21,524 nucleotides of DNA from a virus (IMGVR_UViG_2663762839_000009:1-21524), one strand, 5' to 3'; positions 1 through 16,321 are shown, numbered from the stretch's first letter. The notes: generated by a model from the letters alone, not told the origin. Translations and numbers: made by a program.

Positions 1-564
1 CACATTAATTATATTGAAGTAATGTTTTAAGGTTTGTAATGCCCCTGGAACAGTACTAATTTAAAAAATTTCTGCTGGGCAATAGCACAATTGTCACCCG
101 ATATCACTCTTACATTTTTTGCACTTTCTGTGACCTCGACAACTGGCATTTCTAATCAGCAATTGTATTGGTATTTGGCGTATTACCCCTGAAACCACTC
201 ATGCGCTGGTCCCTCACTATTCAATGATAATCAGCGAAAACCAACCACACCAGTGTCCACTGCAACCACTTGCGCTCAGAGCGACAAACGATTGGCTAAA
301 GAGTCGGCGACAGTCGAGTATCATCGAACCAATAGTGGTTGTTTCCGTCATAATTTCATCAGGTTGCTATTTTGTCGCCAGCTGCCTTTATCCCCTCACA
401 TTTATAGTGGGATTATTTTGCATCGTTACACGATAAAAGGTAGGATTCTGCGCCGACAGTTATACCCATAAAGAATAATGGTGAATCTTGTCATCGCCAG
501 GATGAATAAACATTGTTCATGGCGACATAAAAGACTTTTTTCATTAAAGCAATCAGGGAGCGCA

Positions 565-2064
565 ATGAGTAAACACAACACCGACACTTCAGAGCAACAC
601 GCTGCGAAACGCCGCTGGCTTAATGCCCACGAAGAGGGATATCACAAAGCAATGGGCAATCGTCAGGTGCAGATGATCGCCATTGGCGGTGCGATTGGTA
701 CTGGTTTGTTTTTAGGCGCGGGAGCCCGACTGCAAATGGCGGGGCCGGCGCTGGCACTGGTCTATTTAATCTGCGGCCTGTTTTCGTTTTTTATTCTGCG
801 CGCGTTGGGTGAGCTGGTATTGCATCGCCCTTCCAGTGGCAGCTTTGTCTCCTATGCCCGTGAGTTTCTGGGTGAGAAAGCCGCTTATGTTGCCGGTTGG
901 ATGTACTTCATCAACTGGGCGATGACCGGGATTGTTGATATTACCGCCGTCGCTCTGTATATGCATTACTGGGGTGCGTTTGGCGGCGTGCCGCAGTGGG
1001 TCTTTGCGCTCGCTGCACTTACCATCGTTGGCACCATGAATATGATCGGCGTGAAATGGTTCGCCGAGATGGAGTTCTGGTTTGCGCTTATTAAAGTGCT
1101 CGCCATTGTGACCTTTTTGGTCGTGGGTACGGTGTTCCTCGGTAGTGGTCAGCCGCTGGATGGCAACACCACTGGCTTTCATTTAATCACCGATAATGGC
1201 GGCTTCTTCCCCCACGGTTTGCTGCCTGCGCTGGTGTTGATTCAGGGCGTAGTGTTTGCTTTTGCCTCCATTGAAATGGTGGGTACAGCTGCCGGAGAAT
1301 GTAAAGATCCGCAGACCATGGTGCCTAAAGCGATTAACAGTGTGATTTGGCGTATTGGCCTGTTTTACGTCGGCTCCGTGGTGTTGCTGGTTATGTTATT
1401 GCCGTGGAGCGCGTATCAGGCGGGGCAAAGTCCGTTCGTGACGTTTTTCTCTAAACTGGGTGTGCCATATATCGGCAGCATTATGAACATTGTGGTGCTG
1501 ACCGCTGCCCTCTCCAGCCTGAATTCAGGTCTGTACTGCACCGGACGTATTCTGCGCTCAATGGCGATGGGCGGTTCCGCACCGAGTTTTATGGCGAAAA
1601 TGAGTCGTCAGCATGTGCCGTATGCCGGGATTCTGGCGACACTGGTTGTGTATGTCGTCGGCGTATTCCTCAACTATCTGGTGCCGTCGCGCGTATTTGA
1701 GATTGTGTTGAACTTCGCGTCGCTGGGAATCATCGCTTCATGGGCGTTTATCATCGTGTGCCAGATGCGCCTGCGTAAAGCGATTAAAGAAGGCAAAGCA
1801 GCGGATGTCAGTTTTAAACTGCCTGGCGCGCCCTTCACTTCCTGGCTGACATTACTGTTTTTACTGAGTGTCCTTGTGCTGATGGCGTTCGATTACCCGA
1901 ACGGGACTTATACTATCGCGGCGCTGCCGATTATCGGTATTCTGCTGGTTATAGGCTGGTTTGGTGTGCGCAAACGCGTTGCTGAAATTCACAGCACTGC
2001 GCCCGTAGTCGAAGTAGATAAAGAAAAACAGGATATTGCATTTAAGCCTGAAACGGCGAGTTAA
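565..2064 (+). CDS. ansP: L-asparagine permease (APC-family amino acid transporter)
   Basis: Long ORF 478..2064; the translation from the internal ATG at 565 (MSKHNTDTSEQHAAKRRWLNAHEEGYHKAMGNRQVQMIAIGGAIGTG...) is recognised as AnsP. AGGGAG Shine-Dalgarno about 8 nt upstream of 565. Multi-pass hydrophobic transporter profile. The upstream 29 codons of the ORF are probably not translated. Confidence 0.85.
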   Translation: MSKHNTDTSEQHAAKRRWLNAHEEGYHKAMGNRQVQMIAIGGAIGTGLFLGAGARLQMAGPALALVYLICGLFSFFILRALGELVLHRPSSGSFVSYAREFLGEKAAYVAGWMYFINWAMTGIVDITAVALYMHYWGAFGGVPQWVFALAALTIVGTMNMIGVKWFAEMEFWFALIKVLAIVTFLVVGTVFLGSGQPLDGNTTGFHLITDNGGFFPHGLLPALVLIQGVVFAFASIEMVGTAAGECKDPQTMVPKAINSVIWRIGLFYVGSVVLLVMLLPWSAYQAGQSPFVTFFSKLGVPYIGSIMNIVVLTAALSSLNSGLYCTGRILRSMAMGGSAPSFMAKMSRQHVPYAGILATLVVYVVGVFLNYLVPSRVFEIVLNFASLGIIASWAFIIVCQMRLRKAIKEGKAADVSFKLPGAPFTSWLTLLFLLSVLVLMAFDYPNGTYTIAALPIIGILLVIGWFGVRKRVAEIHSTAPVVEVDKEKQDIAFKPETAS

Positions 2065-2186: not shown

Positions 2187-2655
2187 TTACAGCGCTATAC
2201 GAATCACATCGTCTGGCTGGGTAGCTTCCTGCTGTTTAGTGGATTTTTGTTTCACACTGACATACAGCGTTTTACCATCGGCAGAAAGAGCCAGACTGTT
2301 CGGATGAGTCGGCGTATCGAACGTTTTCACCACTTTATAGCTTTTCGCGTCAATCACACTGACTTTACCTGCCTGACGATGCGTCACGTAGGCTTCATTA
2401 CGCGCGGGGTTAAACAGCACAGCCAGTGATTCCGGTGCCGCAACCTTCGCCAGAATATTGCCATTACGGGTATCGACCACTAACACTTCTGCCGCTTTAG
2501 AATCGGTGATAAATGCACGCTGCCTGGCGGTATCAAGGCTGATGTTGATAAAGAAGTGCTCTTTGCCGTCATCCAGCAGCTTTTTACGACTGAGGATTTT
2601 ATTGTCGGCGGTGTCGATGGTAATCAATTCGCCGTCAGCGTTAGTGGTGTAACTA
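2187..2655 (-). pseudogene. yncE: yncE 3' fragment (PQQ-like beta-propeller protein), 5' part replaced by prophage DNA
   Basis: Minus-strand ORF 2187..2687; from about residue 13 onward (YTTNADGELITIDTADNKILSRKKLLDDGKEHFF...DDVIRIAL) it reads as the C-terminal half of YncE. The first ~12 codons are antisense to a tail-fibre-assembly fragment, so the gene is 5'-truncated at about 2650-2665. Confidence 0.7.
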
Positions 2656-2662
2656 CGCAAGA

Positions 2663-2878
2663 AAACTGGAAGCAATGCGCCAGTCATATCTTAATCAGGC
2701 ATATGAAAAAATTAATGACTGGAGAACGGAGCTACAACTGGGCACCATCAGCGATGAAGACAGAGCAGCACTTACCCAATGGATGGCATACATCAGTCAG
2801 GTGAAGAAAATGGAACTACCCGCCATTAAAACAGAAGCTGAATTTAACGCCATTAAATGGCCTGAGCAGCCACAGTAA
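2663..2878 (+). pseudogene. Tail fibre assembly protein (Tfa/U-type), C-terminal fragment, inverted relative to the tail fibre gene
   Basis: Frame is open from the TAG at 2642-2644; the translation ...SDEDRAALTQWMAYISQVKKMELPAIKTEAEFNAIKWPEQPQ has the typical Tfa C-terminus (acidic-Ala-Leu, W/Y-rich, terminal WPxxP). There is no N-terminal portion; the fragment abuts yncE. Confidence 0.5.
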
Positions 2879-2881
2879 TAA

Positions 2882-2901
2882 AGAAGGCCGGAAGGCCTTC
2901 T
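2882..2901. terminator. Hairpin between convergent tail fibre gene and Tfa fragment
   Basis: AGAAGGCC-ggaa-GGCCTTCT perfect 8-bp stem, 3 nt after the Tfa stop and 8 nt after the tail fibre stop; AT-rich flanks. Confidence 0.5.
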
Positions 2902-2909
2902 GAATATCA

Positions 2910-3791
2910 TTATATACTTGCAGCCGTCACCCATGCTCCATTTAACAGATACTGCAACGGCCGGTAATACACGCCGCCGACGTTATCTGCCGTATTCTTA
3001 CCGACATCCTGTACTTTAATTCCGGTAAGAACATTGCCGCCCCCCAGATTCAGATCCCAGCTTTCCCATGTTCCGGGCATATGTGCGGTCACCGACCCCA
3101 GTCTTATGGCGGTTACTGTTCCTGATGAGATAGTGATATCCTGCGTCCCGTCAAAGGGAACACCATTAATTGTGTGGGCATTTGCCAGCCTGTTCGCGGC
3201 AACGGCGGTGCCGTCCGATGGCAGGGCATTCGCCGCCCTGTTTACCGTTTCCCGTAAACCGACGTTATCGATAAAAGCCCCTTTATCCGGAATGTCTGCG
3301 CCGTTCTGCTCCCTGCGCAGGTAACGGTTATCACCTTCGCTTTTGCTGTAAACATCCAGATTATTACGGGCGGTTCCCTTATTCTCCAGGTCGGCGAGAT
3401 TCTGATCCTTCGCCAGGGCATTAACGTCAGCGGGACCAAGACTGTTTTTTGTGGCAAGCGTCCCCAGACCAAGATAACCACGGGCCAGACGCTGGGCCTC
3501 CGCACCGGCATCAGCAATTTCTTTCAGGTTATTTTTCCGGGAAAAGGCATTCGCAGCGATAATGGCTTTAATGGACAGCGTAAGCTGGTTTAACTGCGCC
3601 TTATCCGGCTGAATACTGGCTTCAGCCAGAATATTCAGCAGTTCGGCCTGGAGAATATTCAGCCAGTCCTGACCAATCCAGCTGATACCTTTTTGTCCGT
3701 CACCTTCGGTAAACCAGGTGGTGGTATTACTCTGCGCCGGTGCCAGCGCAGGCATATTCGCCACGCCGGAATTATTATCAACATGAAACAT
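2910..3791 (-). CDS. Phage tail fibre protein
   Basis: 293-aa ORF. C-terminal region contains a phage tail-fibre repeat-like motif ([20 protein letters not shown]). ATG overlaps the stop of the upstream baseplate-gene fragment (TAATG), as for baseplate/tail-fibre coupling in Mu-like phages. Confidence 0.7.
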
Positions 3792-4276
3792 TAAATAGTC
3801 TCCTCTTCATGGCTGTTTGCATAAACGTAAATAAACGTCTGCCATGCAGGCTTATAACGGTTCAGAATACATTCCAGCGCACCGCCTTCATAAATACGCA
3901 GCGGCGTGAGAATATCATCCAGCACATTCATATTCCGGTAGCCGGTTTCACTGTTAATCGTGACAATACTGACCCACTGCGAATCCGGTGAGGGCTGAAT
4001 GTCAATCTGATAACCAAACTCCGCCGCAAACCGGATATAAAATTCACGGTTCAGCGAGGGCTTCATCCGGTATTTATTTCCGGCATAACGCTGTCGCTCC
4101 GTGAGGGTGGCTCCGGCCATATCACACTCGGGAAGCCCGAGATAACGCTCCCAGTCTTCCAGCAGCAGGCGCGACGTGTCAGGGAAACGCTCGGCAAGCA
4201 GCTGTTTACCCGTCCAGGATAAGCATTCACAATCACATCCAGTTTGTCGGGCTGACGTTTCAGACTGTACGGTGCA
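3791..4276 (-). pseudogene. Mu gp48/YmfQ-like baseplate protein, 5'-truncated
   Basis: Frame is open from the stop at 4277-4279 to 3791 and reads ...LLAERFPDTSRLLLEDWERYLGLPECDMAGATLTERQRYAGNKYRMKPSLNREFYIRFAAEFGY..., but there is no ATG/GTG/TTG before the ATG at 4120, which lies downstream of the conserved LEDWERYLGLP motif. Family assignment is from recalled motif similarity, not a search. Confidence 0.5.
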
Positions 4277-5472
4277 TTAACGGCAATCTGCACACTGCCA
4301 TCCTTATTTTCCACGATATACATCAGATTTTTGTGCCGTTTGTCCCACAGCACCGCTTTTGGCTTTGCCAGCATTGCCGGTAAGCGCCCGAAGTCCTCTG
4401 GCATCAGGGCGATGCCGTCATTCTGATGTTTCACACTGTCTGCATGGAGCACATTTTTACCGCTCATCGCCAGCAGGCGGGCCGGTGGCGTTCCCGTCCG
4501 GCTTTCCACTGCCTGCGCAATGCTTTCAGTCATAAAGCCCAGCGTGCGGATATCGTTACCACCTCGCCGGGTCTGCATGATGTTTTTTGCCCAGATGCGG
4601 AACGCCAGCTGCCGCTCCGGGCTGTTGTTCATCTCCTGAACCACCATTTCCCGTAACGCCGGGCTTTTCACCTCGATCAGTTTGCGGATCAGCGCCTGGT
4701 CTGTGCCGAACGCTGCCGAGCCGGGGTTATATGACCAGCCCACATCCGGTGTCATGGTTCTGGTGCCATCTGAATATGTGGTCACCGGCATTTCTCTGAC
4801 TTCTCCGGTCTGTTTATCCACGCCAGCCTCAACATTGCGGGTGGAGAGATGATCCTCACCGGATGAAACGGATAACCCCATTGCATCCAGACGAGCCTGA
4901 GACAATGGCCGCACACGGCAGCGGCAGTTCCAGCCATTAGGTGGGTAGTGTGTTTTCCAGAACGGATCGTCATAGCGGAATACCAGACCGTTAAGGGCGG
5001 AATGCGACGGGCGGGTACGGCTGTCCATGACCGCCACATACTGCCAGAACGGATGCGTGTCCGTGTTGTTCATCATCTGCGTGTAACGCCCGGCATTGTA
5101 AGCCACCCGGGTGTTCACGTTGTAAATCAGCGCCAGACGACGGGGACTGCCCAGTTGCACTTCTTCCGCGTTACCGTCGCTGTCCACCACAATCTGCTTT
5201 CCCCACCATCCCAGCTTTTGCAGGCGTGGCGTCAGCGTGCGGATAAATGCTTTCTGTGAAATTCCCTCATCAATGGCCCGCTGCACTTCGGCCTGTAACG
5301 TGGTCACCACATCCAGGCGTGCCGCTTTTGCTGCCGTGAATGAGCGGGCATGAACATCCGCGGCTGTTTCGAACCAGTTCCAGCTGATATGCGCCCCTTT
5401 GACACGGAAGTATGCTACCGCCTCTTTTGAGGGAAGCGTGGCGGCATAACCTAAATCAATCCCCTGTGTCAT
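4063..5472 (-). CDS. Mu F (gp30)-like head morphogenesis protein; last ~50 codons read out of frame through the baseplate-gene fragment
   Basis: 469-aa ORF. Contains the Mu F / SPP1 gp7-type motif (...VAVMDSRTRPSHSALNGLVFRYDDPFWKTHYPPNGWNCRCRVRPL...). After ...KLDVIVNAYPG the translation becomes low-complexity (RVNSCLPSVSLTRRACCWKTGSVISGFP...) while the other frame encodes the baseplate protein. Confidence 0.8.
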   Translation of the reverse strand: MTQGIDLGYAATLPSKEAVAYFRVKGAHISWNWFETAADVHARSFTAAKAARLDVVTTLQAEVQRAIDEGISQKAFIRTLTPRLQKLGWWGKQIVVDSDGNAEEVQLGSPRRLALIYNVNTRVAYNAGRYTQMMNNTDTHPFWQYVAVMDSRTRPSHSALNGLVFRYDDPFWKTHYPPNGWNCRCRVRPLSQARLDAMGLSVSSGEDHLSTRNVEAGVDKQTGEVREMPVTTYSDGTRTMTPDVGWSYNPGSAAFGTDQALIRKLIEVKSPALREMVVQEMNNSPERQLAFRIWAKNIMQTRRGGNDIRTLGFMTESIAQAVESRTGTPPARLLAMSGKNVLHADSVKHQNDGIALMPEDFGRLPAMLAKPKAVLWDKRHKNLMYIVENKDGSVQIAVNAPYSLKRQPDKLDVIVNAYPGRVNSCLPSVSLTRRACCWKTGSVISGFPSVIWPEPPSRSDSVMPEINTG

Positions 5473-7045
5473 CCAGCATCCCCTTCATTTCCGCAGCAAA
5501 CATGGCATCACTGAGCAGCGTCATCAGGCGGGAATCATCCATTTCACGATAAAGGGCAGGCAGGTCTGCCAGCGCATCCGCCAGCCCCCGCGTTCTGATG
5601 GCATCAATGACCGGCTCCAGTACCGGGTCGATGGCCTCCTGTAAGCGGCGGGCAGGCACCGCGTCCCCCATATCATCCAGTTCATCACGCGGCGTGCTTT
5701 TCGCTTCCGGCAGTCTGGCTGACAGCGCCGTCTGCTCTGTTTTTTCCTGTTTTTCCGGTGGTGTTTCCCTGTCGGTCTGAGCCGGTTCATTGCCACTCTG
5801 ACGGACACGGAATATGGCTTCACCGGGCGTGGGCTGCGGAATACCGGTCTGCTCACGTATCCAGGGATCAGAAATATCCATCCCCGTACTGAGCTGCATC
5901 ACCGCACTGGTGATTTTGGTGATATCACCTGGTTCTTTTGTCTGGAAGCAGATACGTGGCAGACGGCGGATATCAATAGTGTGCGTGGTGTTCAGGGCGT
6001 ACAGCGGATACACCAGATCGCGGTTCAGGGTTGCAGCCAGCTGTCGTAAATCAGAATCCCTGATTTCCCGGCGCACCTCGTTATGTACCTCACCCAGTGA
6101 GCGCGCGCCTTTGTCTCCGGCTTCCGTGGTCAGCGTGCCGCCGAGTATTGCTTTGGAGATGGAACGCTCCCCCCACGAAATCATGGTTTCAAACGGATCG
6201 GCCTGACCGTTCGCTGCCGCCTGAAACTCCAGCGACATCCCGGCCGGGATGATCCCGCCTGTACGTCGCCCGATATCCATCACCGCCCGCATCAGGGCAC
6301 TTTTCTGCTCCGGTGTTGCCCCGGACGGGTATTTCCCGACCTTCATCGGCAGGCCGTACACCTCCAGAAATTCCGCCAGATCGCGCACGGAATAGTTTTT
6401 GAAAATGAACGGCCAGATAAGCGTCCGGACAAGCCCGGTTGCACCACCGTAACCGGTGCGTGAACGCGACTGATGCACTATCCAGCCAAAGGGCTGAAAC
6501 GCCACCCCGGAATGGCTGCCGTCACGCAGCCGCAGTTCGCTCAAATCATCCGGGTTAAGGCAGAAATGCCCGCTGTCACGCCAGCGGATGGCGCGGATGA
6601 TGTGCATTTTACCGAGCATCCCGTGCTCAATTTCCATGCAGGAATAGCCCTTCAGGATGGCATCCGTGGCGTCAAACAGCATGGCATCAAACCAGTCTGC
6701 GGAATGCAGATATTCGTCGAGCATTTCCGCGTCCTTTTTCTCATTCGCGCTGGCGTTCGGTGGCGGCTCAATACTCCATGGCCCCCCCTGAATGGCAAGA
6801 CGTCGCTTGCCCAGCTCCGCAAAAAGGTGGGTGTCCTTTTCTTCAATATCAGCGGCCAGATCGGACTGGGCAATCAGATCGCCACGTTCAGCCCCGCGAA
6901 GGCACTGCGCCGCCCGGTTCGGGGTGATACCCGAAGCCGGATGTTCAATATAACGGCTGGCAATCTGCGGAATATCCAGCGCGGCACTCTGCATCTCCGG
7001 GTCAAAGGAGAAAGGTTTTCCGTCAGTATCAATGATGCGTCCCAC
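5456..7045 (-). CDS. Portal protein (Mu gp29-like)
   Basis: 529-aa ORF directly downstream of and overlapping the large terminase gene by 1 nt, followed by the F-like gene: the conserved terminase-portal-F order of Mu-like phages. Confidence 0.8.
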   Translation of the reverse strand: MGRIIDTDGKPFSFDPEMQSAALDIPQIASRYIEHPASGITPNRAAQCLRGAERGDLIAQSDLAADIEEKDTHLFAELGKRRLAIQGGPWSIEPPPNASANEKKDAEMLDEYLHSADWFDAMLFDATDAILKGYSCMEIEHGMLGKMHIIRAIRWRDSGHFCLNPDDLSELRLRDGSHSGVAFQPFGWIVHQSRSRTGYGGATGLVRTLIWPFIFKNYSVRDLAEFLEVYGLPMKVGKYPSGATPEQKSALMRAVMDIGRRTGGIIPAGMSLEFQAAANGQADPFETMISWGERSISKAILGGTLTTEAGDKGARSLGEVHNEVRREIRDSDLRQLAATLNRDLVYPLYALNTTHTIDIRRLPRICFQTKEPGDITKITSAVMQLSTGMDISDPWIREQTGIPQPTPGEAIFRVRQSGNEPAQTDRETPPEKQEKTEQTALSARLPEAKSTPRDELDDMGDAVPARRLQEAIDPVLEPVIDAIRTRGLADALADLPALYREMDDSRLMTLLSDAMFAAEMKGMLDDTGD

Positions 7046-8709
7046 TACCAGCCCCCCCGATCAAATTCATGATATGCCTCATCGTCATCACGATAACCGC
7101 CCTCCATTGCCCGCGACCGCTCCGGTAGCGCCTGACAGGCTGATTCATCCAGGATGAAGCCCTCCATGTATGACGCCCGGTTTGCCATACAGAGCGCCAC
7201 GGCAAAATCACCATGGCGGCGGGCGTTCGCAGCCGTTGCGTTCTGGTCCTTCGTGCGCCCCTTGTCGATTTGCGGGATACCATTCACTACCTTCACATGG
7301 CGCAAATCATCAAGCGTGGTCTGATGGCGGGCGACGAGGATATTCTGATCTTCAAACTCGGCTTTCAGTTTTGGCATCCACTCGCCGTACCACTTCGGCG
7401 ACAACATCACGCAGTCGATGATGTCCGGGCCAAAGGCCAGCAGTGCGGCCTCTGCCAGATAGCCGCCGTTACCGGTGGCGTCGAACGCCGCACCGACCAG
7501 CGCCGGAACGCGGGTCAGGATGTACATCATCACCTGTTCCTGCTGGGCATACGGCAGGTTGCGCAGCTCCACGCGAAACACCTCGCGCTTTGCCAGGGAT
7601 TCGGTGATTTCCAGCAGCACAAAGCAGGACAGGTCACCGGTGCGGGCAAAGTCTTCCCCGAAGCTGAAGCGGGAACGGGGATTTAATTTCTCTAAAAGCG
7701 GTTTTAAATGTTCTTCACACCAGGTTAAAACTTCCGATTCACGCAGCCATGCGGCACGGCTGATGAAGTTGTCCGGGGCTTCAAACGTCAGAATCGGGAT
7801 GTCGCGGATCATCGCCATTTCAATAAGCGCGTGGGGGATATAGGCACCGCCGGATTTTTTCGGGATACAGCCGTATTCCTCGTCGGCATCCTCACGGGTC
7901 GGGGCATTTTTGTAGAGATCATCACGCCATTTCTGCTCGCTTTCCGGTGACCATTCCTGATCGGTGACGTAACAGATACGACGGTACAGCCCGTCCGCAA
8001 TGGCATCATCCAGGGTTATGCGGTGGACGCTGTAATCCTTGCGCCCCTCGCGGGCTTCCTGAATGTACTGATTAAACAGATTATCGACGCCGTTATGCGT
8101 GGAGATAATACGCACGCGCGCGCCCCACATAGTGAGCGCCATTGCCGCCTTGAGAAGTTCATCCAGCGACTCGTGGAACGCGGCTTCATCAATCACCACA
8201 TCCCCCTGAAGGCCGCGCAGGTTTGACGGACGGGAAGACAATGCCTGAATTTTGAATCCACTGTACGGAAAGCGGATCATGTAGGTCAAAATTTCTTCTT
8301 TTTTATCCCGTTCCCAGAATGTCTGCTCATACACATCAGCATCTGCCAGCTGGTTAAAGGCACGGGAGAACAGCGCGCAGGCAGAAATATATTCCAGCGC
8401 CATCTCCTGCTTTGATCCCACATAAAACACATTGCGGCCACCACGACGCTTCGGTTTTGCAGCAGTAATGACGTTACGCCCGGCTTCCGCCCAGGTAAGA
8501 CCGGTGCGGCGGGATTTTTCCGCAATGCAGACCTGACTTTCATCCTCAAACCAGCGGGCCTGATAATCCAGAAACACCGGCATATCACCGGGCAAATCAA
8601 GTCTGTCCGGCACATCCACGCCCAGCAGGGCTTTTTCACCGGACAGATCAATTTTGCGGGGAGGCGTCATTTGTATCAGTGAAGGAGACGTTTCTTTGGC
8701 TTTGTTCAT
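7045..8709 (-). CDS. Terminase large subunit (Mu gp28-like)
   Basis: 554-aa ORF with an ATPase-like N-terminal part and nuclease-like C-terminal part; sits between the gp27-like gene and the portal gene. Confidence 0.8.
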   Translation of the reverse strand: MNKAKETSPSLIQMTPPRKIDLSGEKALLGVDVPDRLDLPGDMPVFLDYQARWFEDESQVCIAEKSRRTGLTWAEAGRNVITAAKPKRRGGRNVFYVGSKQEMALEYISACALFSRAFNQLADADVYEQTFWERDKKEEILTYMIRFPYSGFKIQALSSRPSNLRGLQGDVVIDEAAFHESLDELLKAAMALTMWGARVRIISTHNGVDNLFNQYIQEAREGRKDYSVHRITLDDAIADGLYRRICYVTDQEWSPESEQKWRDDLYKNAPTREDADEEYGCIPKKSGGAYIPHALIEMAMIRDIPILTFEAPDNFISRAAWLRESEVLTWCEEHLKPLLEKLNPRSRFSFGEDFARTGDLSCFVLLEITESLAKREVFRVELRNLPYAQQEQVMMYILTRVPALVGAAFDATGNGGYLAEAALLAFGPDIIDCVMLSPKWYGEWMPKLKAEFEDQNILVARHQTTLDDLRHVKVVNGIPQIDKGRTKDQNATAANARRHGDFAVALCMANRASYMEGFILDESACQALPERSRAMEGGYRDDDEAYHEFDRGGW

Positions 8710-8957
8710 CAGGCTTTACCTGTCAGAATGCTTTTGATTCGGAACTCAAGCTCTTCAGTCATCACGTCCACGCCACTCAACTCATCAGTGACAGCCTCTG
8801 CCAGCAGCGAATGCAGTTGTTCCAGGGATATTTCCCCGGCAATGCTGAGTTCAGTCAACTCACGACACGCTTTTATGGTTTCAGGAGGTAACTGTGTTGC
8901 AAGACTGAATGCCTTCTGATGAGCACTACTCATCAGTGAGCGGTTATCTGTTACCAC
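8709..8957 (-). CDS. Small protein (82 aa) whose C-terminus copies the C-terminal tail of the adjacent gp27-like protein
   Basis: GTG start at 8957 preceded by AGGAGGTG. C-terminus ...LLAEAVTDELSGVDVMTEELEFRIKSILTGKA parallels ...EEMANAVTDELRGVDGMSEQIEFRIRQMLLGKA of ORF 8968..9549. Stop overlaps the terminase start. Confidence 0.5.
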   Translation of the reverse strand: MVTDNRSLMSSAHQKAFSLATQLPPETIKACRELTELSIAGEISLEQLHSLLAEAVTDELSGVDVMTEELEFRIKSILTGKA

Positions 8958-8967
8958 GATTCACCTC

Positions 8968-9549
8968 CTACGCCTTACCAAGCAGCATCTGCCTGATACG
9001 GAATTCTATCTGCTCGCTCATGCCATCCACGCCGCGCAACTCGTCGGTGACGGCGTTCGCCATCTCTTCAGCAAATGCGGCCCGGATTTCTTTTTCACGC
9101 TTAATGCTGCGCTCGGCGGCACTTTCCGCACGCTGTGCCGACAGGAGGATGTCCTTAATAAGGCGCATATCCACATCGCTGTCGCTGTTCAGGGATTCGG
9201 TGGCAGCACGCAGACGGCGGTACATCAGGGCGCGGGACATTTCCAGAATCAGTGCCGTGGTTTCACCGGTCGGCTTGTCCCCCAGTTCGGCCATCATGGC
9301 TTTTGTCTGCTCGCGTAAATCACGCAGGTTACGGGCAATCAGCTCATTACGGGAGGCCTCCCGGCTGATGGCCGCCGGTGAAAGCTGCTGCTCTTCCGGC
9401 AGACCCGCCTCACGGATCAGGCGGTTGATTTCCTCGCGGATCTGGACCTGCGTCAGGCGTTTTTCACGCAGCATTTCCAGCAGCGGCTTACGGATGCTGT
9501 CGGGGAGCAAATCCACCTTGCGTACACGGCCACGCGTTGGCTTATCCAT
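8968..9549 (-). CDS. Mu gp27-like protein (putative small terminase/packaging subunit)
   Basis: 193-aa ORF, basic N-terminus (MDKPTRGRVRKVDLLPDSIRKPLLEMLREKRL...) with a helical, charged body; position immediately upstream of the large terminase. Confidence 0.7.
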   Translation of the reverse strand: MDKPTRGRVRKVDLLPDSIRKPLLEMLREKRLTQVQIREEINRLIREAGLPEEQQLSPAAISREASRNELIARNLRDLREQTKAMMAELGDKPTGETTALILEMSRALMYRRLRAATESLNSDSDVDMRLIKDILLSAQRAESAAERSIKREKEIRAAFAEEMANAVTDELRGVDGMSEQIEFRIRQMLLGKA

Positions 9550-9551
9550 CG

Positions 9552-9842
9552 TTACCCCCTTGCGCGTGGTTTCTTCACACCCGGAACAGTGGCACGACCT
9601 TCCGCCACATCCTGACCCCGGCCGGTCAGTTCAGCGATGAAATAACCGTTAACAAGCGTGCGCTTACGCACCAGTCCCTGCTCGGCAAGCCAGGCAATGT
9701 GGGTGTGAACGGTGTCGCGGGACACACGGTGGCCGTAATCATCCAGGCAGTCCTGAAGCACGGATTCGCCCAGTTCGCCGTTGTAATCCGCCAGCGACCG
9801 CAGAATGACAAGACGCTGATCTTCAGTAATGAAATCACTCAT
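9552..9842 (-). CDS. Mu gp26-like small protein (winged-helix-like)
   Basis: 96-aa ORF tightly coupled between the membrane protein and the gp27-like gene. Confidence 0.55.
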   Translation of the reverse strand: MSDFITEDQRLVILRSLADYNGELGESVLQDCLDDYGHRVSRDTVHTHIAWLAEQGLVRKRTLVNGYFIAELTGRGQDVAEGRATVPGVKKPRARG

Positions 9843-10147
9843 TGTGTTTTTTTCCTTACAGCCTGCTCCAGCAGCAGTTCGTTCTGGTGGGAGACGGATT
9901 TCAGGGTGGCATTGGTGGCCTTAAGCTCACCGCGCAGGGTGGTGATTTCGATATTGAGTCTGTTCACCTCCTGCTGCGTGGGCAGGCCGGAAATCCGGCT
10001 CTCCACCCGCTCAACCCGGTCGGAGAGTTTTTCAAAGGCCTCGCGGGGGACAAAGGTTTTGCGCATCAGCGCCATAAAGATCCCCCCGGCCGTGGCCGTG
10101 GCCGACAGGATCGGCACGACATAATCTTTAACGATACTGACCCACAT
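9839..10147 (-). CDS. Small membrane/coiled-coil protein (Mu gp25-like; possible lysis accessory)
   Basis: N-terminal hydrophobic segment (VVPILSATATAGGIFMALM) followed by a heptad-like charged region; located in the lysis/packaging junction. Confidence 0.55.
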   Translation of the reverse strand: MWVSIVKDYVVPILSATATAGGIFMALMRKTFVPREAFEKLSDRVERVESRISGLPTQQEVNRLNIEITTLRGELKATNATLKSVSHQNELLLEQAVRKKTQ

Positions 10148-10355
10148 GACCGGCCTCCATGATGTTCTGGCAGTTCACACAACGGATGGCATCCGGCACG
10201 GCAACCAGACGGGCGGCCGGAATGTCACCCCCGCAGTCCGCGCATGCACGCCTGCCCGGTGTCTCCGCCACCCGGCGCTTACGTGTCAGCCGGTCACAAA
10301 GGGCGCGTTCTGTTGCCCGCTCCACGACTGCCTGAGCACAATCTGAATCATCCAT
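10128..10355 (-). CDS. TraR/DksA-family C4 zinc-finger protein
   Basis: CADCGGDIP...(17 aa)...CVNCQ four-cysteine motif. Start taken at the internal ATG at 10355, which has an AAGGA Shine-Dalgarno; the ORF track starts at 10421. Confidence 0.65.
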   Translation of the reverse strand: MDDSDCAQAVVERATERALCDRLTRKRRVAETPGRRACADCGGDIPAARLVAVPDAIRCVNCQNIMEAGHVGQYR

Positions 10356-10365
10356 ACCTTTTTCC

Positions 10366-10737
10366 TTACTTCGTCTTTCCTGCCGGAACAGCAGTCGTTC
10401 CGGCCATATCAGTAAATTCATGCTGTCGCTGTGCCTCCAGACGGCGGATGCTGGCCTTGTCCACGTTGCAGTTTTTAATCACCGCCAGCAGTTGCAGGTT
10501 GTAAGTGACCGATGCGCCAAATGTGAACGGCTGCGGCACAGGAGGGACCAGACAGTCAGCCAGCCATTCAGCGGGGATCGGCACCGGCTTCACCGGCACG
10601 TATTTCACAGACGGCCCGCCGCACCCGGTCAGCCACATCATCAGGCACAGGAACAGAGGCCGCAGGCACCGTTGCCAGCGACCGGCGGACAATGCTCTGC
10701 TGTTCCTCGCTGTGCTGCATGTTCTGCTGTTTTTCAT
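10366..10737 (-). CDS. Outer-membrane spanin candidate (Rz1-like lipoprotein), overlapping the i-spanin in another frame
   Basis: Lipobox LTGC (..LFLCLMMWLTGCGGPS..) followed by a proline-rich segment (PVKPVPIPAEW...PPVPQP). Start codon uncertain; the ORF track frame is 10366..10848. Confidence 0.45.
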   Translation of the reverse strand: MKNSRTCSTARNSRALSAGRWQRCLRPLFLCLMMWLTGCGGPSVKYVPVKPVPIPAEWLADCLVPPVPQPFTFGASVTYNLQLLAVIKNCNVDKASIRRLEAQRQHEFTDMAGTTAVPAGKTK

Positions 10738-11068
10738 TCGTGGCCGCCTTGCTGATTTGTGAAATGAGTTGCAGGGTGCGTTGCTGGTTTGCCAGCACCA
10801 GACGGGCTTCGTCCCGTTCACGCACAAGCACATGATTATTGTCCTCAAGGCGCTGCGTCTTCTGGTGCATTCCCCATACCACGGCAGCCAGCACGCTCAT
10901 CACCCCCAGCGCCGCCATACAGCCTCCGGCAATCAGGGCCGGTAAGGGATTGTTCACCGCAGCCACAGCACACCCCGCAGCAGCACAACGGCACACAGCA
11001 GCGCAATCATGAGCGGTCGCCAGAAGCGGTTCAGACTTTCGGCAAATCGTAACGACATAACCATTCAT
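10568..11068 (-). CDS. Inner-membrane spanin candidate (Rz-like)
   Basis: Hydrophobic segment (MAALGVMSVLAAVVWGM) followed by a charged coiled-coil-like region (HQKTQRLEDNNHVLVRERDEARLVLANQQRTLQ...); immediately downstream of the lysozyme gene. Start uncertain (ATG at 11068 or 10918). Confidence 0.55.
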   Translation of the reverse strand: MNGYVVTICRKSEPLLATAHDCAAVCRCAAAGCAVAAVNNPLPALIAGGCMAALGVMSVLAAVVWGMHQKTQRLEDNNHVLVRERDEARLVLANQQRTLQLISQISKAATNEKQQNMQHSEEQQSIVRRSLATVPAASVPVPDDVADRVRRAVCEIRAGEAGADPR

Positions 11069-11531
11069 CCGCCGAACGGCGGGCCTCAAGACCGGGGAGT
11101 TTTACCCCCTTTGAATAAATCCAGCGGATATACTGCTTACAGGACGCGGGCATCTGCCCGGCATTGATAAGGCACAGGAGCGTGGAGTTGCGAAAGTTCG
11201 TTTCACCGGCCCAGAAAATCCAGGAGGCCAGCGCCACCGTCTGACCACGGGTAAGCGGCACCTGAACATGACGATCGATAGCCGCAAAGGCCCATTTCAT
11301 GTCCTTTTCCAGCAGCTCCAGACACTCTTCATCAGTTTTTGTCATCCCCGGTTTCACATCCGGGCCGGTATGGCCGTAACAGATGGTGGGGGTGCCGGTG
11401 GGATCAATGTACGTGGTGTTTTCTTTCCCTTCCCAGTAGCCGGTGTAGTGCGTGGCAATGGTGAACGTCCCGGCTCCGGCCAGAACAAGGGCAATCAGCT
11501 TTTTACGCAGGGGTGCGGGGAGTTTTGGCAT
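11031..11531 (-). CDS. Phage lysozyme (T4-lysozyme/GH24-type) with N-terminal signal-anchor-release (SAR)-like segment
   Basis: YWEGKENTTYIDPTGTPTICYGHTG catalytic-region motif. N-terminal Gly/Ala-rich weakly hydrophobic stretch (LIALVLAGAGTFTIATHY) typical of SAR endolysins. Confidence 0.85.
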   Translation of the reverse strand: MPKLPAPLRKKLIALVLAGAGTFTIATHYTGYWEGKENTTYIDPTGTPTICYGHTGPDVKPGMTKTDEECLELLEKDMKWAFAAIDRHVQVPLTRGQTVALASWIFWAGETNFRNSTLLCLINAGQMPASCKQYIRWIYSKGVKLPGLEARRSADEWLCRYDLPKV

Positions 11532-11532
11532 T

Positions 11533-11570
11533 GTTACGCTGTCTCATGGTGTTCTCTGAGTCAGCGTAAC
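11533..11570 (-). promoter_or_regulatory. 9-bp perfect inverted repeat immediately upstream of the lysozyme start
   Basis: GTTACGCTG (11533-11541) and CAGCGTAAC (11562-11570) separated by 20 bp, in the 71-bp gap between the Mor/C-family gene and the lysozyme gene. Confidence 0.4.
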
Positions 11571-11602
11571 CGTGGGAAAAAGTGGGCAGGATTTGCGGAA
11601 TA

Positions 11603-12025
11603 TCAGAAAAGCCGTGGCTGCGTGCGTTCCTGATGCAGGCGACGCTGGTTGCGGATAACGGAGTAAATCTGCGTCTCTGACATCTGGTAGTGGCGGCGCA
11701 GGGTTTCAATTTTTTCGCCCTGGCTCCAGCGGGAAAAAATTTCATTATTGCGCAGTTCGGTGAAAAGGGATTCACCGACCGGGAGATAATAACCACGCCC
11801 GCCCATGTACCCGGCCTGTGCGGCTGCAACCTTACGGGCAAGCATTCCCGCCTGAGCAGGTTCAATCCCCTGACGGTGCAGTTCAGCACTGATCACATCA
11901 ACCAGGTCCCGCAGCGTGCCGGGCCAGTTCTTTTTCAGCTCATCATCAGGAATATCATCCAGACGGTCAATCAGCGCGTGCAGCTGTTCGCTGTCACCAA
12001 ACATGCTCATCTGTGTTTCAGCCAT
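11603..12025 (-). CDS. Mor/C-family transcriptional activator
   Basis: 140-aa ORF with a C-terminal HTH-like region (...ETLRRHYQMSETQIYSVIRNQRR...) in the Mu position between gemA and the lysis gene; preceded by a terminator-like hairpin. Confidence 0.75.
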   Translation of the reverse strand: MAETQMSMFGDSEQLHALIDRLDDIPDDELKKNWPGTLRDLVDVISAELHRQGIEPAQAGMLARKVAAAQAGYMGGRGYYLPVGESLFTELRNNEIFSRWSQGEKIETLRRHYQMSETQIYSVIRNQRRLHQERTQPRLF

Positions 12026-12065
12026 ACCCGCCTCCGGTCATCATTACACAGGGCAAGTTTAAAAT

Positions 12066-12090
12066 AAAAATCCCGCGCTGTGGCGGGGTT
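12066..12090 (-). terminator. Candidate intrinsic terminator at the end of the early operon
   Basis: On the minus strand: CCCGC-cacagc-GCGGG stem followed by ATTTTTATTTT, directly after the gemA stop. Confidence 0.45.
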
Positions 12091-12095
12091 TGGGG

Positions 12096-12608
12096 TTAAA
12101 AGGGGGAGGATTCTTCATACAGCCTGCAAACGCGCTCATAACTCATCACTGTACGCGCTGGCATCCCCAGCACATCCAGCATCTTGCGGCGGTGCCAGCG
12201 TTTGAGACGCTCCAGCACATCAGAGGCCAGCGCGGGGTGTTGTTCCAGCCACTGCCAGTTAGCCACACCTTCGCCGCCGTTCTGAGCGGCCGTCTGCGAT
12301 TTCACCCAGCGGTTAAGGGCTGTTTCCCCGCCATCAGAGATAAAGCCCTGCCGGTGCATCACCTTCCAGATGGCGCGAATTTTGGCGGTCACCGTACCCG
12401 GTTTTAAGGCCCGGTTAACCGGCTTCTGACGCACTTTAAAACCGCGTTTTTTGAAAACATCCAGCACGCGGGATAACTCATCCGGTGACATATCCCGGCA
12501 ACTGGGTTTGCCGGTGGCTGCCAGTAGTACGGATGTGTAGGTCTCATGGTCAAGCTGTAGATCGCGTTTTGCGACATGTATTAAGGTAATCAGGGAAGCG
12601 CGATTCAT
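12096..12608 (-). CDS. gemA: GemA-like protein (Mu gp16 family)
   Basis: 170-aa ORF (MNRASLITLIHVAKRDLQLDHETYTSVLLAATGKPSCRDMSPDELSRVLDVFKKRGF...) at the end of the early operon, immediately before the Mor/C-family activator. Confidence 0.75.
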   Translation of the reverse strand: MNRASLITLIHVAKRDLQLDHETYTSVLLAATGKPSCRDMSPDELSRVLDVFKKRGFKVRQKPVNRALKPGTVTAKIRAIWKVMHRQGFISDGGETALNRWVKSQTAAQNGGEGVANWQWLEQHPALASDVLERLKRWHRRKMLDVLGMPARTVMSYERVCRLYEESSPF

Positions 12609-12672
12609 TATCGTGTCTCCGTAACAACAGGCGGCATGGCAACGCCGCCCGGATAAAACTAAAGGTATCGAT

Positions 12673-13083
12673 ATGAAAATAGATTACGATGAAGTATTAA
12701 GTATTCTCACAACTTTTCAGGATGCTGAAACACCTTTCCTTACACTACAGGATCTGGGCATGGCTGAGGCAGAAGGAGAGGAAAAGGATAAAAAAGTTTT
12801 TCATCTTATGCTTCTCGCTGATAATGGCTCAATTGTTAATGGTGATATGCAGTCAGAAACACCCAAATATATTGGTTTCTTTTTCCATTCTCTGGGCGTT
12901 GGTTTCAGAAACACGCCCATTATGCTTACCCAGCAGGGGCATGATTTAGCTAACGCCCTGAGAAAAAAACCAATCCTTGAAAGAATCAAAAAGGAGTTTA
13001 CAGACGCACCATTTGATCTAATTAAAGAAGTTACCAAATCAATGTTAACCAGGTTCGTCAAAGAACGTATTGGGATTGACTGA
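12673..13083 (+). CDS. Hypothetical protein, opposite-strand AT-rich accessory gene
   Basis: 136-aa ORF on the plus strand inside an otherwise minus-strand operon; AAAGG Shine-Dalgarno 7 nt upstream; visibly AT-rich codon usage; own hairpin plus T-run downstream; 3' end overlaps the convergent gene 13045..13353 by about 39 nt. Confidence 0.6.
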   Translation: MKIDYDEVLSILTTFQDAETPFLTLQDLGMAEAEGEEKDKKVFHLMLLADNGSIVNGDMQSETPKYIGFFFHSLGVGFRNTPIMLTQQGHDLANALRKKPILERIKKEFTDAPFDLIKEVTKSMLTRFVKERIGID

Positions 13084-13353
13084 ACAACTTAATTCAGCCA
13101 GTAATCGCAGGGCGGCGACAGCCGCCTGCTTGTCACTTCTTTTAGCTATTTCCGCAAGAGTATGCACAATCCATAACGGACTTAACGCCACGGCTGAATC
13201 CAGAATCATGTCATCCATAATAATTTCTGGCATATCCCGCTTGTCACATTCTTTATCCATAAAAGAAACGAATTTCTCTGCATCTTCCGGTTTCATGCCT
13301 CCGGCGATAAGGATTTTGCGATATTCATAAGACGATCTTAATTCAATACTCAT
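13045..13353 (-). CDS. Hypothetical protein (102 aa)
   Basis: ATG at 13353 preceded by AGGTGA; AT-rich; acidic protein. Confidence 0.5.
   Translation of the reverse strand: MSIELRSSYEYRKILIAGGMKPEDAEKFVSFMDKECDKRDMPEIIMDDMILDSAVALSPLWIVHTLAEIAKRSDKQAAVAALRLLAELSCSVNPNTFFDEPG
13107..13145 (+). terminator. Candidate intrinsic terminator for the plus-strand accessory gene
   Basis: GCAGGGCGGCG-aca-GCCGCCTGC stem followed by TTGTCACTTCTTTT, about 25 nt after the stop at 13083; lies inside the coding sequence of the convergent minus-strand gene. Confidence 0.45.
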
Positions 13354-13368
13354 TATTCACCTGCCTGC

Positions 13369-13761
13369 TTAATCTGTTTCCAGTGCTTTGCTACGGGCTA
13401 TAGCCTCACATTCAAAAAACACCGACTCCGGCACGCGCTCTTTTAATTCACGAACAAGGAAATCATTAACGCGTTCATGACGTCTTATATTTCTTTCCTT
13501 TTCCTCCTGGCGCAATACAGCAAGGCGGTATTCAACAGCCCGGCGTTGTTTCTGAAAGACAGCCAGTGCTTTTCTGGCAGCATTACGCCATGCATCATCG
13601 CCACATGGTGCGTATTCAAGCTGAAATTTAATCTCTTCAATAGTTTCTTTGATTTTTGCCAGCAAGCTAAGACAGTCGCTTATTGTCTCCAGCTTTTCAT
13701 TATCAATATAACTTCTCACGCATTCACCTCCCGTAATTCCGGTAAAGCCGAAATATGACAC
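13369..13761 (-). CDS. Hypothetical coiled-coil protein
   Basis: ORF 13369..13761; the true start may be the GTG at 13719, which overlaps the upstream stop as GTGA. Charged helical sequence (...RKALAVFQKQRRAVEYRLAVLRQEEKERNIRRHERV...). Confidence 0.5.
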   Translation of the reverse strand: MSYFGFTGITGGECVRSYIDNEKLETISDCLSLLAKIKETIEEIKFQLEYAPCGDDAWRNAARKALAVFQKQRRAVEYRLAVLRQEEKERNIRRHERVNDFLVRELKERVPESVFFECEAIARSKALETD

Positions 13762-14045
13762 CAGTGCGTCACCTGTCCGTCTTCATCTTCAAGGCAGGCT
13801 CCGGTTTCTTCATCAACAAAAAAGCCTTCATACCCCATATGGCCGATGCGCAGCTCCTGACGGTGACCATACTGAACAATCAGCACGGCAGCCTCCATAT
13901 CAGGTGGGAAAGCATCATTCAGTGAATGCCAGGGATAACCGCGTAAATCCCCGAAATAAACACCGGTCAGCGTTCCGCCACAGAGCGGCATTCCGGCGGC
14001 ACACACAAGAGGTTCATCTGATTCAACAAATAAGGTCGTTATCAT
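13716..14045 (-). CDS. Hypothetical protein (109 aa)
   Basis: ORF translationally coupled to its neighbours (overlaps 14042..14593 by 4 nt). Confidence 0.5.
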   Translation of the reverse strand: MITTLFVESDEPLVCAAGMPLCGGTLTGVYFGDLRGYPWHSLNDAFPPDMEAAVLIVQYGHRQELRIGHMGYEGFFVDEETGACLEDEDGQVTHWCHISALPELREVNA

Positions 14046-14593
14046 GGCGTTAACTCCCGTAATACAGCGTCCTCGGCAGTCCGGCGACGGTAATAAACTG
14101 CGTGAGCAGAATGTTCAGATATTCCAAACTTTTCGCCAATTTCCCGGAATGACAGACGGCGTGGGTAATCGGAATCACGCAGCGCACGTATAAGACGTAC
14201 ATCATCATCAGATATGTGCGTGCCGGGGCGTAACTCTCCGCACTTTGTTAATCCAGCACCAATCATTCCTGCCCGACATCTGACAGAATCTTTATTACGT
14301 CCGAGATATTCTCCCATTTGCTGGCAGGTCATTGTTCTGGCATTTTTTCGAATAAACTTATCTTCATCAGGTGTAAATCTTGGGTGTTTATATTTCAGTA
14401 ACTCCGGGTATGAACTGCGCAATACACCAGTCCGGTTATATACAGCCCAGACAGTTCTTTTTATTCTGGCAGCAATATCCTTAACCGGGGTGGATGAATA
14501 AAGCGCAATCAGCAGCGCATCTTCTTCAGGTGTCCACGGACGGACATGAGCGGGGGCGCGACCTTTTAGTCCCATGGGTTGTAATTTCATCAT
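14042..14593 (-). CDS. Putative DNA-binding protein with three internal Myb/SANT-like helix-turn-helix repeats
   Basis: Three repeats of the pattern hydrophobic-T/S-acidic-acidic-helix: WTPEEDALLIALYSSTPVKDIAARIKRTVWAVYNR / FTPDEDKFIRKNARTMTCQQMGEYLGRNKDSVRCR / ISDDDVRLIRALRDSDYPRRLSFREIGEKFGISEHSAHAVYYRR. Confidence 0.55.
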   Translation of the reverse strand: MMKLQPMGLKGRAPAHVRPWTPEEDALLIALYSSTPVKDIAARIKRTVWAVYNRTGVLRSSYPELLKYKHPRFTPDEDKFIRKNARTMTCQQMGEYLGRNKDSVRCRAGMIGAGLTKCGELRPGTHISDDDVRLIRALRDSDYPRRLSFREIGEKFGISEHSAHAVYYRRRTAEDAVLRELTP

Positions 14594-14596
14594 GCA

Positions 14597-15112
14597 TCAC
14601 CCCCTGACTCGCTTTTCAGCAGCATAAAACTCATCAGACAGTATTTCGGTCATTTTCTGTTTTGCGGGTTTTACGCCGCACTGAAGGTAAATCACATCGT
14701 CAACGCAGAACCACTTCACAGGGCCAAACAGGATTGCCGAGAAATCAATACCCAACCAGAACAACAGCGCATCGGTTCTGGCATACGTGACGGGCGAATA
14801 TTCACGCCACAGACTGTTCAGTTCATCAGAGGCAACACGCAGGGTTTTAGGGATACGTGATGTGCGCGGTGTGCAGCTCCAGCCATTCGACGCAGTCGGT
14901 TTTCGCCATAAGTCGCGATGAAAAGGATATTTGTCCTCCGTAAAACGCAGTCCCTTAAAGTAAAATCCACTGATACCGGATACAAATACCGACCGGCACG
15001 CAACATTCAGCACGGCCTCAAGGCGTTTTGCCTCATCCTTAACTTTCTGGCAGTCCTGCTGGTATTTTTGCCACGCAGCCAGCGCGGAAGGGTTTGATGT
15101 TTTAAAGAACAT
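14597..15112 (-). CDS. Hypothetical protein (171 aa)
   Basis: ORF whose ATG overlaps the stop of the upstream gene (TAATG at 15112); no recognisable motif. Confidence 0.5.
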   Translation of the reverse strand: MFFKTSNPSALAAWQKYQQDCQKVKDEAKRLEAVLNVACRSVFVSGISGFYFKGLRFTEDKYPFHRDLWRKPTASNGWSCTPRTSRIPKTLRVASDELNSLWREYSPVTYARTDALLFWLGIDFSAILFGPVKWFCVDDVIYLQCGVKPAKQKMTEILSDEFYAAEKRVRG

Positions 15113-15645
15113 TACGCCACCTCCGCAGATATCCCGGCAGGCGCTGCTGTCCGGTCAACAATCAGGTAGCGCAGAACATGTTCAGTGATATTCCAGCCGC
15201 TTAAACCGCAGATAATGACGCCCAGGCGTATGTCGATATACGCCATCACAAACTGGGGCACGCCTTCTTTCATGGCCTGCTCATCAACTTCTGCCACCAC
15301 ATAAACGGTTTCACAGGTCAGAACGCCCTGAGCAAATTCCCACGCCATCGACGGAATATCATGCCCCTCAATCCATGGCAGGGATTTTCTGAAGCCGCAC
15401 CACTGAACATCATCAGCCGCAGATTCCTGGCTGCATTTGCGACGAACCGGCTGCACCGGGCGGGGGCGCGGAATATCATAAAAACCGTTACATTCCGTCA
15501 GCACGCCTGCATCAACCGCATCACGCAGAAAATAAACCATGGAGGATGGCGGCATATTCATTTTTTCAGCCAGTACACCGCAGGTCAGGCGGCCATAAAT
15601 ACACAGCCAGTTTTTAACCCCTTCAAGCACTTTTGCATCAATCAT
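15112..15645 (-). CDS. Hypothetical protein with N-terminal winged-helix-like region
   Basis: 177-aa ORF, first gene after the AT-rich spacer downstream of gam; N-terminus GRLTCGVLAEKMNMPPSSMVYFLRDAVDAGVL resembles a wHTH. Confidence 0.5.
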   Translation of the reverse strand: MIDAKVLEGVKNWLCIYGRLTCGVLAEKMNMPPSSMVYFLRDAVDAGVLTECNGFYDIPRPRPVQPVRRKCSQESAADDVQWCGFRKSLPWIEGHDIPSMAWEFAQGVLTCETVYVVAEVDEQAMKEGVPQFVMAYIDIRLGVIICGLSGWNITEHVLRYLIVDRTAAPAGISAEVA

Positions 15646-15790
15646 GATTTATTTCCCCACCACATTATTAATGACGATATAAACGTATTTCATATTTCTT
15701 AACCCTTATTTTCTGTTTTCAGGCGCAAGCAGTCCCCTGACGCGAGCGCCATAATTAAAATGAAGTGATATTTAATTGATTAATGTGGTG

Positions 15791-16321
15791 TTATTTATTC
15801 AGTCCGGCGTCCTGTTCAAAAGGCTCGACATAAAAACTTTCAGCGCCTTTATTCACCTTGATACCGGCAATGCCTTTCACAGCATCCGGCTCCGCCAGGA
15901 CGGCTTCCTTGTTCACTTCCTCTTTCGTGCGGATGAAACGCTCAAGCCCCATACGGCGCAGCATTTCAATCACACCTTCCACATCACGGCTGACGCTGCA
16001 TGATGGCGTTCCCAGCCGCCATGACACCGTTCCGGTGGTCAGATTGGCTGTTTTGGTTTTGCCGCCGTTCGTCAGCTCATCACGGTTGGTTTTGCACCAG
16101 TCCTGAATCCCTTTAAAAAGCACTTTGATTTGCTTTTTAAGATTTTCAATCTGCGGCGTATAACGGGCGGTGATTTCTGCCACTTCGTCATTCATCGCCG
16201 TTTCCAGGCGCAGCGCCTCTCGCTGAATATCTCCCAGGGTGCGGATATCACGGCTGACTTCTTCCCGGGTCTGCGGTGCCGCCTCGGCTGCGGCCTTTAA
16301 TTTTGTAACGCGTTTAGCCAT
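15791..16321 (-). CDS. gam: Gam-like host-nuclease inhibitor (Mu Gam/Ku-like DNA end-binding protein)
   Basis: 176-aa ORF; ...EVSRDIRTLGDIQREALRLETAMNDEVAEITARY...WCKTNRDELTNGGKTKTANLTTGTVSWR...FIRTKEEVNKEAVLAEP... is recognised as Mu Gam. Confidence 0.8.
   Translation of the reverse strand: MAKRVTKLKAAAEAAPQTREEVSRDIRTLGDIQREALRLETAMNDEVAEITARYTPQIENLKKQIKVLFKGIQDWCKTNRDELTNGGKTKTANLTTGTVSWRLGTPSCSVSRDVEGVIEMLRRMGLERFIRTKEEVNKEAVLAEPDAVKGIAGIKVNKGAESFYVEPFEQDAGLNK

Follow-up and report, generated by a model that had tools for sequence, protein, structure and literature searches.

A multiply deleted Mu-like prophage beside ansP and yncE of Escherichia coli, with the very probable scar of a single large deletion between its head gene F and baseplate gene ymfQ

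Background

When the reading frame of a phage head gene runs directly into that of a truncated baseplate gene, does the junction record the loss of the structural genes between them, is it native to an element of unusual architecture, or was it made by the assembly? This question is raised by a Mu-type prophage in a stretch of E. coli DNA of 21,524 bp, referred to below as the window, which is one whole short-read draft contig (CDRI01000202.1, NCBI assembly GCA_000946855.1) of an E. coli isolate. An earlier note, made from the sequence alone, had placed an out-of-frame junction between an F-like head gene and a gp48/YmfQ-like baseplate gene at positions 4120-4290 and interpreted it as a deletion scar in an otherwise intact-looking element. 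Here we locate the junction (termed J1) by comparison with three intact reference prophages, those of strains STEC2018-553 (L001, inserted beside the tdc operon), JE86-ST02 (L002, in citF) and AF39 (L005, in the D-cysteine desulfhydrase gene), describe two further junctions (J2 and J3) in the same element, and weigh the possible explanations.

Results

Gene content of the window

Mapping of ORFs and Pfam scans place host genes at the left of the window: positions 1-2652 are 100% identical to the ansP-yncE region of E. coli 14EC033 and contain ansP (478-2064, plus strand; Pfam AA_permease match) and the 3' part of yncE (2187-2652, minus strand, about 155 codons; Pfam YNCE-like match). The host DNA is followed by a Mu-type prophage with nearly all of its genes on the minus strand. 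Its first feature is a 3' fragment of a tail-fibre assembly gene (2653-2878, plus strand), which corresponds to about residues 99-173 of 173 according to tblastn and to positions 72-131 of the 131 positions of the Pfam Caudo_TAP profile. The adjacent tail-fibre gene (2910-3791, minus strand, 293 aa) is apparently intact, with 99.9% DNA identity to its relatives and the same length in AF39 (882 bp). The remnant of the gp48/YmfQ baseplate gene (3791-4219, minus strand) and the F fusion ORF (4063-5472, minus strand) come next, and are described in the following section. The portal gene (5456-7045, minus strand; Pfam Portal_Mu, E-value 4.9e-93) and the large terminase gene (7045-8709, minus strand) are of full length, and over that length their proteins are 99.5-99.8% identical to those of JE86-ST02.

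The region 8709-21417 holds, mostly on the minus strand, the genes for Gp27, lysis, Mor, GemA, Gam, B, A, ner and the repressor, as identified by comparison with JE86-ST02; the repressor gene (20887-21417) and a DUF2513 gene (12673-13083) are on the plus strand and both are of full length. The earlier note had described A, B, ner, repressor, lysis, terminase and portal genes as intact-looking, and this holds for all of them but one: with the exception of A, which carries an in-frame deletion (see below), the genes of this region are full length and 98.9-100% identical to their JE86-ST02 counterparts. Pfam families derived from Mu recognise F, portal, Gp27, Gp48, Mor, GemA, Gam and the C-terminal domain of the Mu transposase. 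The gene order is of the Mu type (c, ner, A, B ... lys ... terminase, portal, F ... tail ... tail fibre) and, apart from the deletions, is collinear with the three intact relatives. Two minus-strand ORFs, at 9839-10147 and 13045-13353, are intact in the window and pseudogenes in JE86-ST02 (a truncated DUF2730 gene and a frameshifted hypothetical gene), hence the JE86-ST02 copy is not the direct ancestor of this one.

The head gene F and the baseplate gene ymfQ at junction J1

The 469-aa ORF at 4063-5472 matches the Phage_Mu_F family (PF04233, E-value 1.1e-29, 103.8 bits against a cut-off of 29.6) with its residues 58-187. Its residues 1-418 are identical (418/418) to the 443-aa F protein of JE86-ST02, and no similarity follows; the point at which the frame had been thought to run into junk, about residue 420, is thus moved to residue 418. 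The 51 residues 419-469, up to the stop codon at 4063-4065, are an out-of-frame reading of ymfQ DNA. With the native C terminus missing, the product is not the full-length protein, which has 443 aa in close relatives, and its MuF_C match falls to 27.5 bits (cut-off 27.6), compared with 28.3 bits in the intact F. Within the same 90% cluster, the full-length F proteins that were read have 443 aa in nearly every case (one has 441 aa), and the 469-aa form is recorded for this contig only, so a natural F with such an extension was not found there. MuF-family proteins with extra C-terminal domains exist (MuF polymorphic toxins), but a genuine added domain of this kind can be ruled out here, as the 51 added residues arise from translation of ymfQ DNA out of frame.

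On the other side of J1, the frame at 3791-4276 (minus strand), which opens directly after a stop codon at 4277-4279, matches Phage_Mu_Gp48 (PF10076, E-value 8.9e-17, 61.7 bits against a cut-off of 37.4) at profile positions 30-147 of 150. The remnant is identical to residues 45-186 of the 186-aa YmfQ of JE86-ST02, and codons 1-44 are absent; it therefore passes the score threshold of the family as an incomplete gene, devoid of its N-terminal region and its start codon. A scan of the frame found no ATG, GTG or TTG ahead of the ATG at 4120, which is Met78 of ymfQ and, as the earlier note had recognised, lies past the LEDWERYLGLP motif; it yields a 109-aa ORF (3791-4120). Direct reading of the sequence upstream of this internal ATG revealed no convincing ribosome-binding site. 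Given this weak start context, the ymfQ remnant is unlikely to be translated, and its translational coupling to the tail-fibre gene has probably been lost too. The start of the tail-fibre gene overlaps the ymfQ stop codon at 3791 by one base.

Position of the breakpoint

In all three intact references F (443 aa) and YmfQ (186 aa) are encoded about 13.8 kb apart, in the order and orientation seen in the window, with structural genes between them, which bears out the proposal that the head and tail-shaft modules were deleted. BLAST aligns window 3136-4221 with L002 9519-10604 (98.07% identity), window 4220-19608 with L002 24427-39818 (99.916%) and window 19604-21524 with L002 40147-42067 (98.75%). 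Identity to the ymfQ side stops at 4221 and identity to the F side begins at 4220, which puts the breakpoint at 4220-4221, inside the interval named originally. Mapped onto the relatives' proteins, it joins residue 418 of F to residue 45 of YmfQ, and the deleted stretch begins with codon 419 of F and ends with codon 44 of the gp48/YmfQ gene. Relatives among the complete E. coli genomes are 98-100% identical to the window on both sides of J1, and since these DNA matches are near-identical with E = 0, chance is no explanation for them. The missing stretch amounts to 13,824 bp relative to JE86-ST02, and, by the match coordinates, to 13,793 bp relative to STEC2018-553 and 13,833 bp relative to AF39. 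The two genes are in different frames in JE86-ST02 and the deleted length is divisible by three; for this reason the join is out of frame and F reads through 51 junk codons of ymfQ.

The ymfQ-side parent reads ...CCGTCCAGGATA up to the breakpoint and continues with CACGCG..., the F-side parent reads ...AACCCGGTA and continues with AGCATTC..., and the window reads ...CCGTCCAGGATA and continues with AGCATTC.... In these three-way alignments only the dinucleotide TA is common to both parental sequences at J1, which is all that the proposed check for microhomology brought to light. No longer homology or inverted repeat was found within ±150 bp: the best local alignment score was 9, compared with a mean of 8.5 and a maximum of 12 for shuffled sequences. 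As the similarity of the flanks is no better than that of shuffles, no repeat can explain the deletion. J1 thus combines the features of a microhomology deletion, i.e. collinear flanks in the same orientation, a missing internal segment, a join of a few bases and no long repeat.

The missing block

Sixteen whole genes, from G to baseplate J, are gone. From F onward the relatives encode G, the protease/scaffold, the major head subunit, an HI1506-related gene, a gp436-family gene, a DUF1834 gene and a DUF2635 gene, followed by the sheath, tube, tail assembly, tape measure, a DNA circularization protein and four baseplate genes, the last of which is J/gp47. The block includes four head-completion or connector genes after the major head protein. 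The absence of the structural genes G to J from the contig agrees with the view, held from the outset, that the element cannot build a capsid or tail.

The spacer between F and G in the relatives carries an 80-nt tRNA-like element on the plus strand, antisense to the late genes (L002 24267-24346, L001 34454-34533 and L005 23517-23596), which PGAP annotates as "tRNA-OTHER". It reaches 31 bits with the Rfam tRNA model (gathering score 29), while ARAGORN gives no call. A scan of the window at the Rfam gathering score returned no match to it, because the element lies inside the deleted block.

Lesions in transposase A and at the prophage ends

Close relatives all carry 333 bp more inside A (18689-20446 in the window, minus strand) than the window does, as their alignment reveals. 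The protein has 585 aa compared with 696 aa when intact, residues 282-392 (111 codons) being gone in frame; the junction J2, found by BLAST against JE86-ST02, lies at 19604-19608 and has a short imperfect microhomology. The catalytic triad of MuA consists of D269, D336 and E392, and the A protein of D108 is one residue shorter than MuA. Alignment of the intact A with D108 A (25% identity) sets D309 opposite D268 and D375 opposite D335, and alignment with the RSV integrase identifies the aspartate of "SDNGS" as D375 and the glutamate as E415. D309 and D375, the counterparts of MuA D269 and D336, are both within the deleted segment, and the protein of the window therefore retains only one of the three DDE residues. 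Its RefSeq entry (WP_045177156.1), which is recorded on the window contig only, is still named Mu transposase domain protein.

At the other end of the element, J3 fuses yncE to a point midway in the tail-fibre assembly gene, at residue 98-99 of the 173-aa protein. Identity to host DNA extends as far as 2652 and that to phage DNA begins at 2646, so that the two overlap by 7 nt (2646-2652, GGTGTAA). Beyond the corresponding point the intact relatives have a partial tail-fibre cassette, an invertase gene (gin), a DUF6645 gene, com, mom and the right end. The contig is without gin, the DUF6645 gene, com, mom, attR and the 5' part of yncE. With the right end missing, the element does not possess the two ends of a functional Mu-like prophage. 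The left end is outside the window: the contig ends (at 21524) about 143 bp before it would reach the left end, whose position is taken from JE86-ST02 (about L002 42210), and this break may reflect a repeat, e.g. another Mu-like prophage in the genome. None of the three junctions lies at a Mu end, which rules out deletion mediated by Mu transposition at J1, J2 and J3.

The tail-fibre assembly gene is convergent to the tail-fibre gene (window 2653-3791), as in AF39 (L005 7555-9415), where a partial second tail-fibre cassette and the invertase follow. This arrangement is consistent with an invertible host-range segment held in one orientation, the invertase having been lost from the window.

Occurrence of the junction elsewhere

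We compared window 3400-5000 by megablast with 5,426 complete E. coli genomes. Matches were obtained in 254 of them, and J1 was covered in none (0/5,426), nor was F followed directly by a short baseplate-like gene in any of these genomes. The ymfQ/tail-fibre side was matched up to position 4221 with 100% identity in seven genomes (H1-H7), and the F side from position 4220 on with 100% identity in three genomes (in a second search). An exact 40-mer across J1 is absent from the GTDB species representatives (one genome per species), and an exact 32-mer from the JGI metagenome contigs. A search of 153 billion gene positions recovered the exact fusion protein on two contigs only, namely the window contig and a contig of 10-20 kb with the same neighbours; the sources listed for the protein in a collection of 15 billion proteins are NCBI and Logan. 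For the shortened A protein and for the truncated YncE, a record from a Logan assembly likewise exists in each case. As J1 is seen only in the window contig and a single Logan contig resembling it, no lineage carrying the junction is available for study.

Relatives of the element

The closest relatives are Sp18-type Mu-like prophages (STEC2018-553, JE86-ST02, AF39), whose genes agree with those of the window in order and content, first from repressor, ner, A and B through lysis and terminase to portal and F, and then from ymfQ through tail fibre to tail-fibre assembly. The JE86-ST02 prophage is 99.9% identical to the window at the DNA level over 15.4 kb, and Mu-like copies in O157:H7 strains are about 95% identical. 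Three segments of the Sp18-type prophages are missing from the window copy, namely the 13.8 kb of head and tail genes, 333 bp from the core of A, and the whole right-hand part of the prophage from midway through the tail-fibre assembly gene onward. Sp18 itself, from O157:H7 Sakai, has been described as Mu-like and predicted to be intact (PMC2669165); the comparison reported here was made with the STEC2018-553, JE86-ST02 and AF39 copies. Mu, D108 and SfMu (Muvirus) share the functional layout of the window, but in the GenBank phage collection D108 and SfMu are only distant in sequence (about 70% DNA identity over a 600-bp stretch of portal and F). Two Stx phage records in that collection hold an inserted Mu-like phage at 95% identity.

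The ancestry of the element appears mosaic. On the ymfQ/tail-fibre side, identity is 100% to one set of prophages and 98.07% to JE86-ST02, and the side from F to A is 99.9-100% identical to JE86-ST02. The JE86-ST05 genome carries both prophage types separately, about 100 kb apart.

Discussion

Origin of the junction

We conclude, with high confidence, that the window contains, beside host ansP and yncE, what several deletions have left of an Sp18-type Mu-like transposable prophage, and that J1 is the scar of a single deletion by illegitimate recombination. One homology-independent event would have removed about 13.8 kb and joined the ends at TA, either by replication slippage or by illegitimate recombination of the end-joining type. 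Two further microhomology deletions would account for the loss of 333 bp from A and for that of the right end of the prophage together with the 5' part of yncE. These events are likely to be recent, judging from the 99.9% identity between the surviving genes and those of an intact prophage.

Three other explanations have to be set against a simple deletion. The one to which we leave most room, though it is distinctly improbable, is a rearrangement in which the 13.8-kb block was moved elsewhere, or in which two Mu-like prophages in direct orientation recombined with loss of the host DNA between them. The two sides of J1 do differ in their best relatives (H1-H7 at 100% and JE86-ST02 at 98.07% for the ymfQ side, JE86-ST02 at 100% for the F side), and JE86-ST05 provides a precedent for a genome holding two such prophages. 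Against this, single intact prophages match both sides, i.e. AF39 with 100% and 99.8% and S1-CAM-01-A with 99.6% and 100%, the tail-fibre modules of related phages are commonly mosaic, and flanks that keep their order and orientation are the signature of a simple internal deletion. It is even less probable that the contig is a chimera that wrongly joins reads from F and ymfQ, while the real prophage is intact. A complete contig of a draft assembly, ending shortly before the left end of the prophage in a way that suggests repeat-related breaks, might invite this suspicion, but chimeras form at shared k-mers; the parents share only 2 nt at J1 and nothing significant around it, so there is nothing there for an assembler to collapse. 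Moreover, the products of all three lesions (the fusion protein, the shortened A and the truncated YncE) are each also recorded from a Logan assembly, which comes from a different pipeline, and three independent clean junctions with short microhomology are typical of real deletions.

We give almost no credence to the last explanation, a natural and functional short architecture, such as that of a satellite-like or domesticated element, in which the extension of F and the short baseplate-like gene would be native. The full-length terminase, portal, lysis and tail-fibre genes, and the extra C-terminal domains known from other MuF-family proteins, could be read in its favour. However, the 51-residue extension is the relatives' ymfQ DNA in the wrong frame, ymfQ lacks a start codon, the arrangement stands as a singleton against the 5,426 complete genomes and the 15-billion-protein collection, and the core of the transposase and the right end have been destroyed as well.

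Consequences for the element

The remnant left by these deletions is almost certainly locked in place, unable to make particles or to transpose, because the head and tail block, two DDE residues and the right end are lost; this prediction is drawn from the gene content of the contig. A test of transposition on induction, as suggested in the earlier note, is predicted to be negative because the transposase core and attR are gone.

A residual function can be imagined, although we consider it very doubtful: the remnant might serve as an immobile starting point for lateral-type transduction of the neighbouring chromosome, with a related, intact Mu-like prophage in the same cell as a helper. It would bring its full-length terminase, portal, lysis and regulatory genes and a left end whose pac site is possibly located just past the end of the contig, and the helper would supply heads and tails; headful packaging starting from the left end of the stump of about 19 kb could then extend into about 20 kb of host DNA (yncE, ansP and beyond).

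Comparison with known deleted prophages

Inactivation of prophages via internal deletion and loss of an end is textbook knowledge. Defective ("grounded") prophages such as those of O157 Sakai are the same in kind as the element described here. The decayed prophages of that strain have internal deletions and have lost attachment ends, leaving a non-mobile remnant with other genes intact (PMC2669165). Compared with other grounded prophages, the one in the window appears very young, with surviving genes 99.9% identical to a complete prophage, and comes from a single isolate. Mini-Mu deletion derivatives resemble it in being Mu-type genomes without the morphogenetic region, but they keep both Mu ends and are transposable, whereas the element in the window has no right end and a transposase minus two catalytic residues.

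Conclusions

The element is a new singleton instance within a known prophage family and a case of ordinary prophage decay, and its significance beyond annotation is little. We suggest that pseudogene status be given to the "head morphogenesis protein" (469 aa), the "Gp48" ORF (109 aa), the "Mu transposase" (585 aa, WP_045177156.1) and the YncE fragment (166 aa), and that the prophage be scored as defective and immobile in prophage censuses. As a clean and apparently very young case of prophage decay, it may serve as a small data point on the speed with which transposable prophages are inactivated and on the kinds of lesions that inactivate them.
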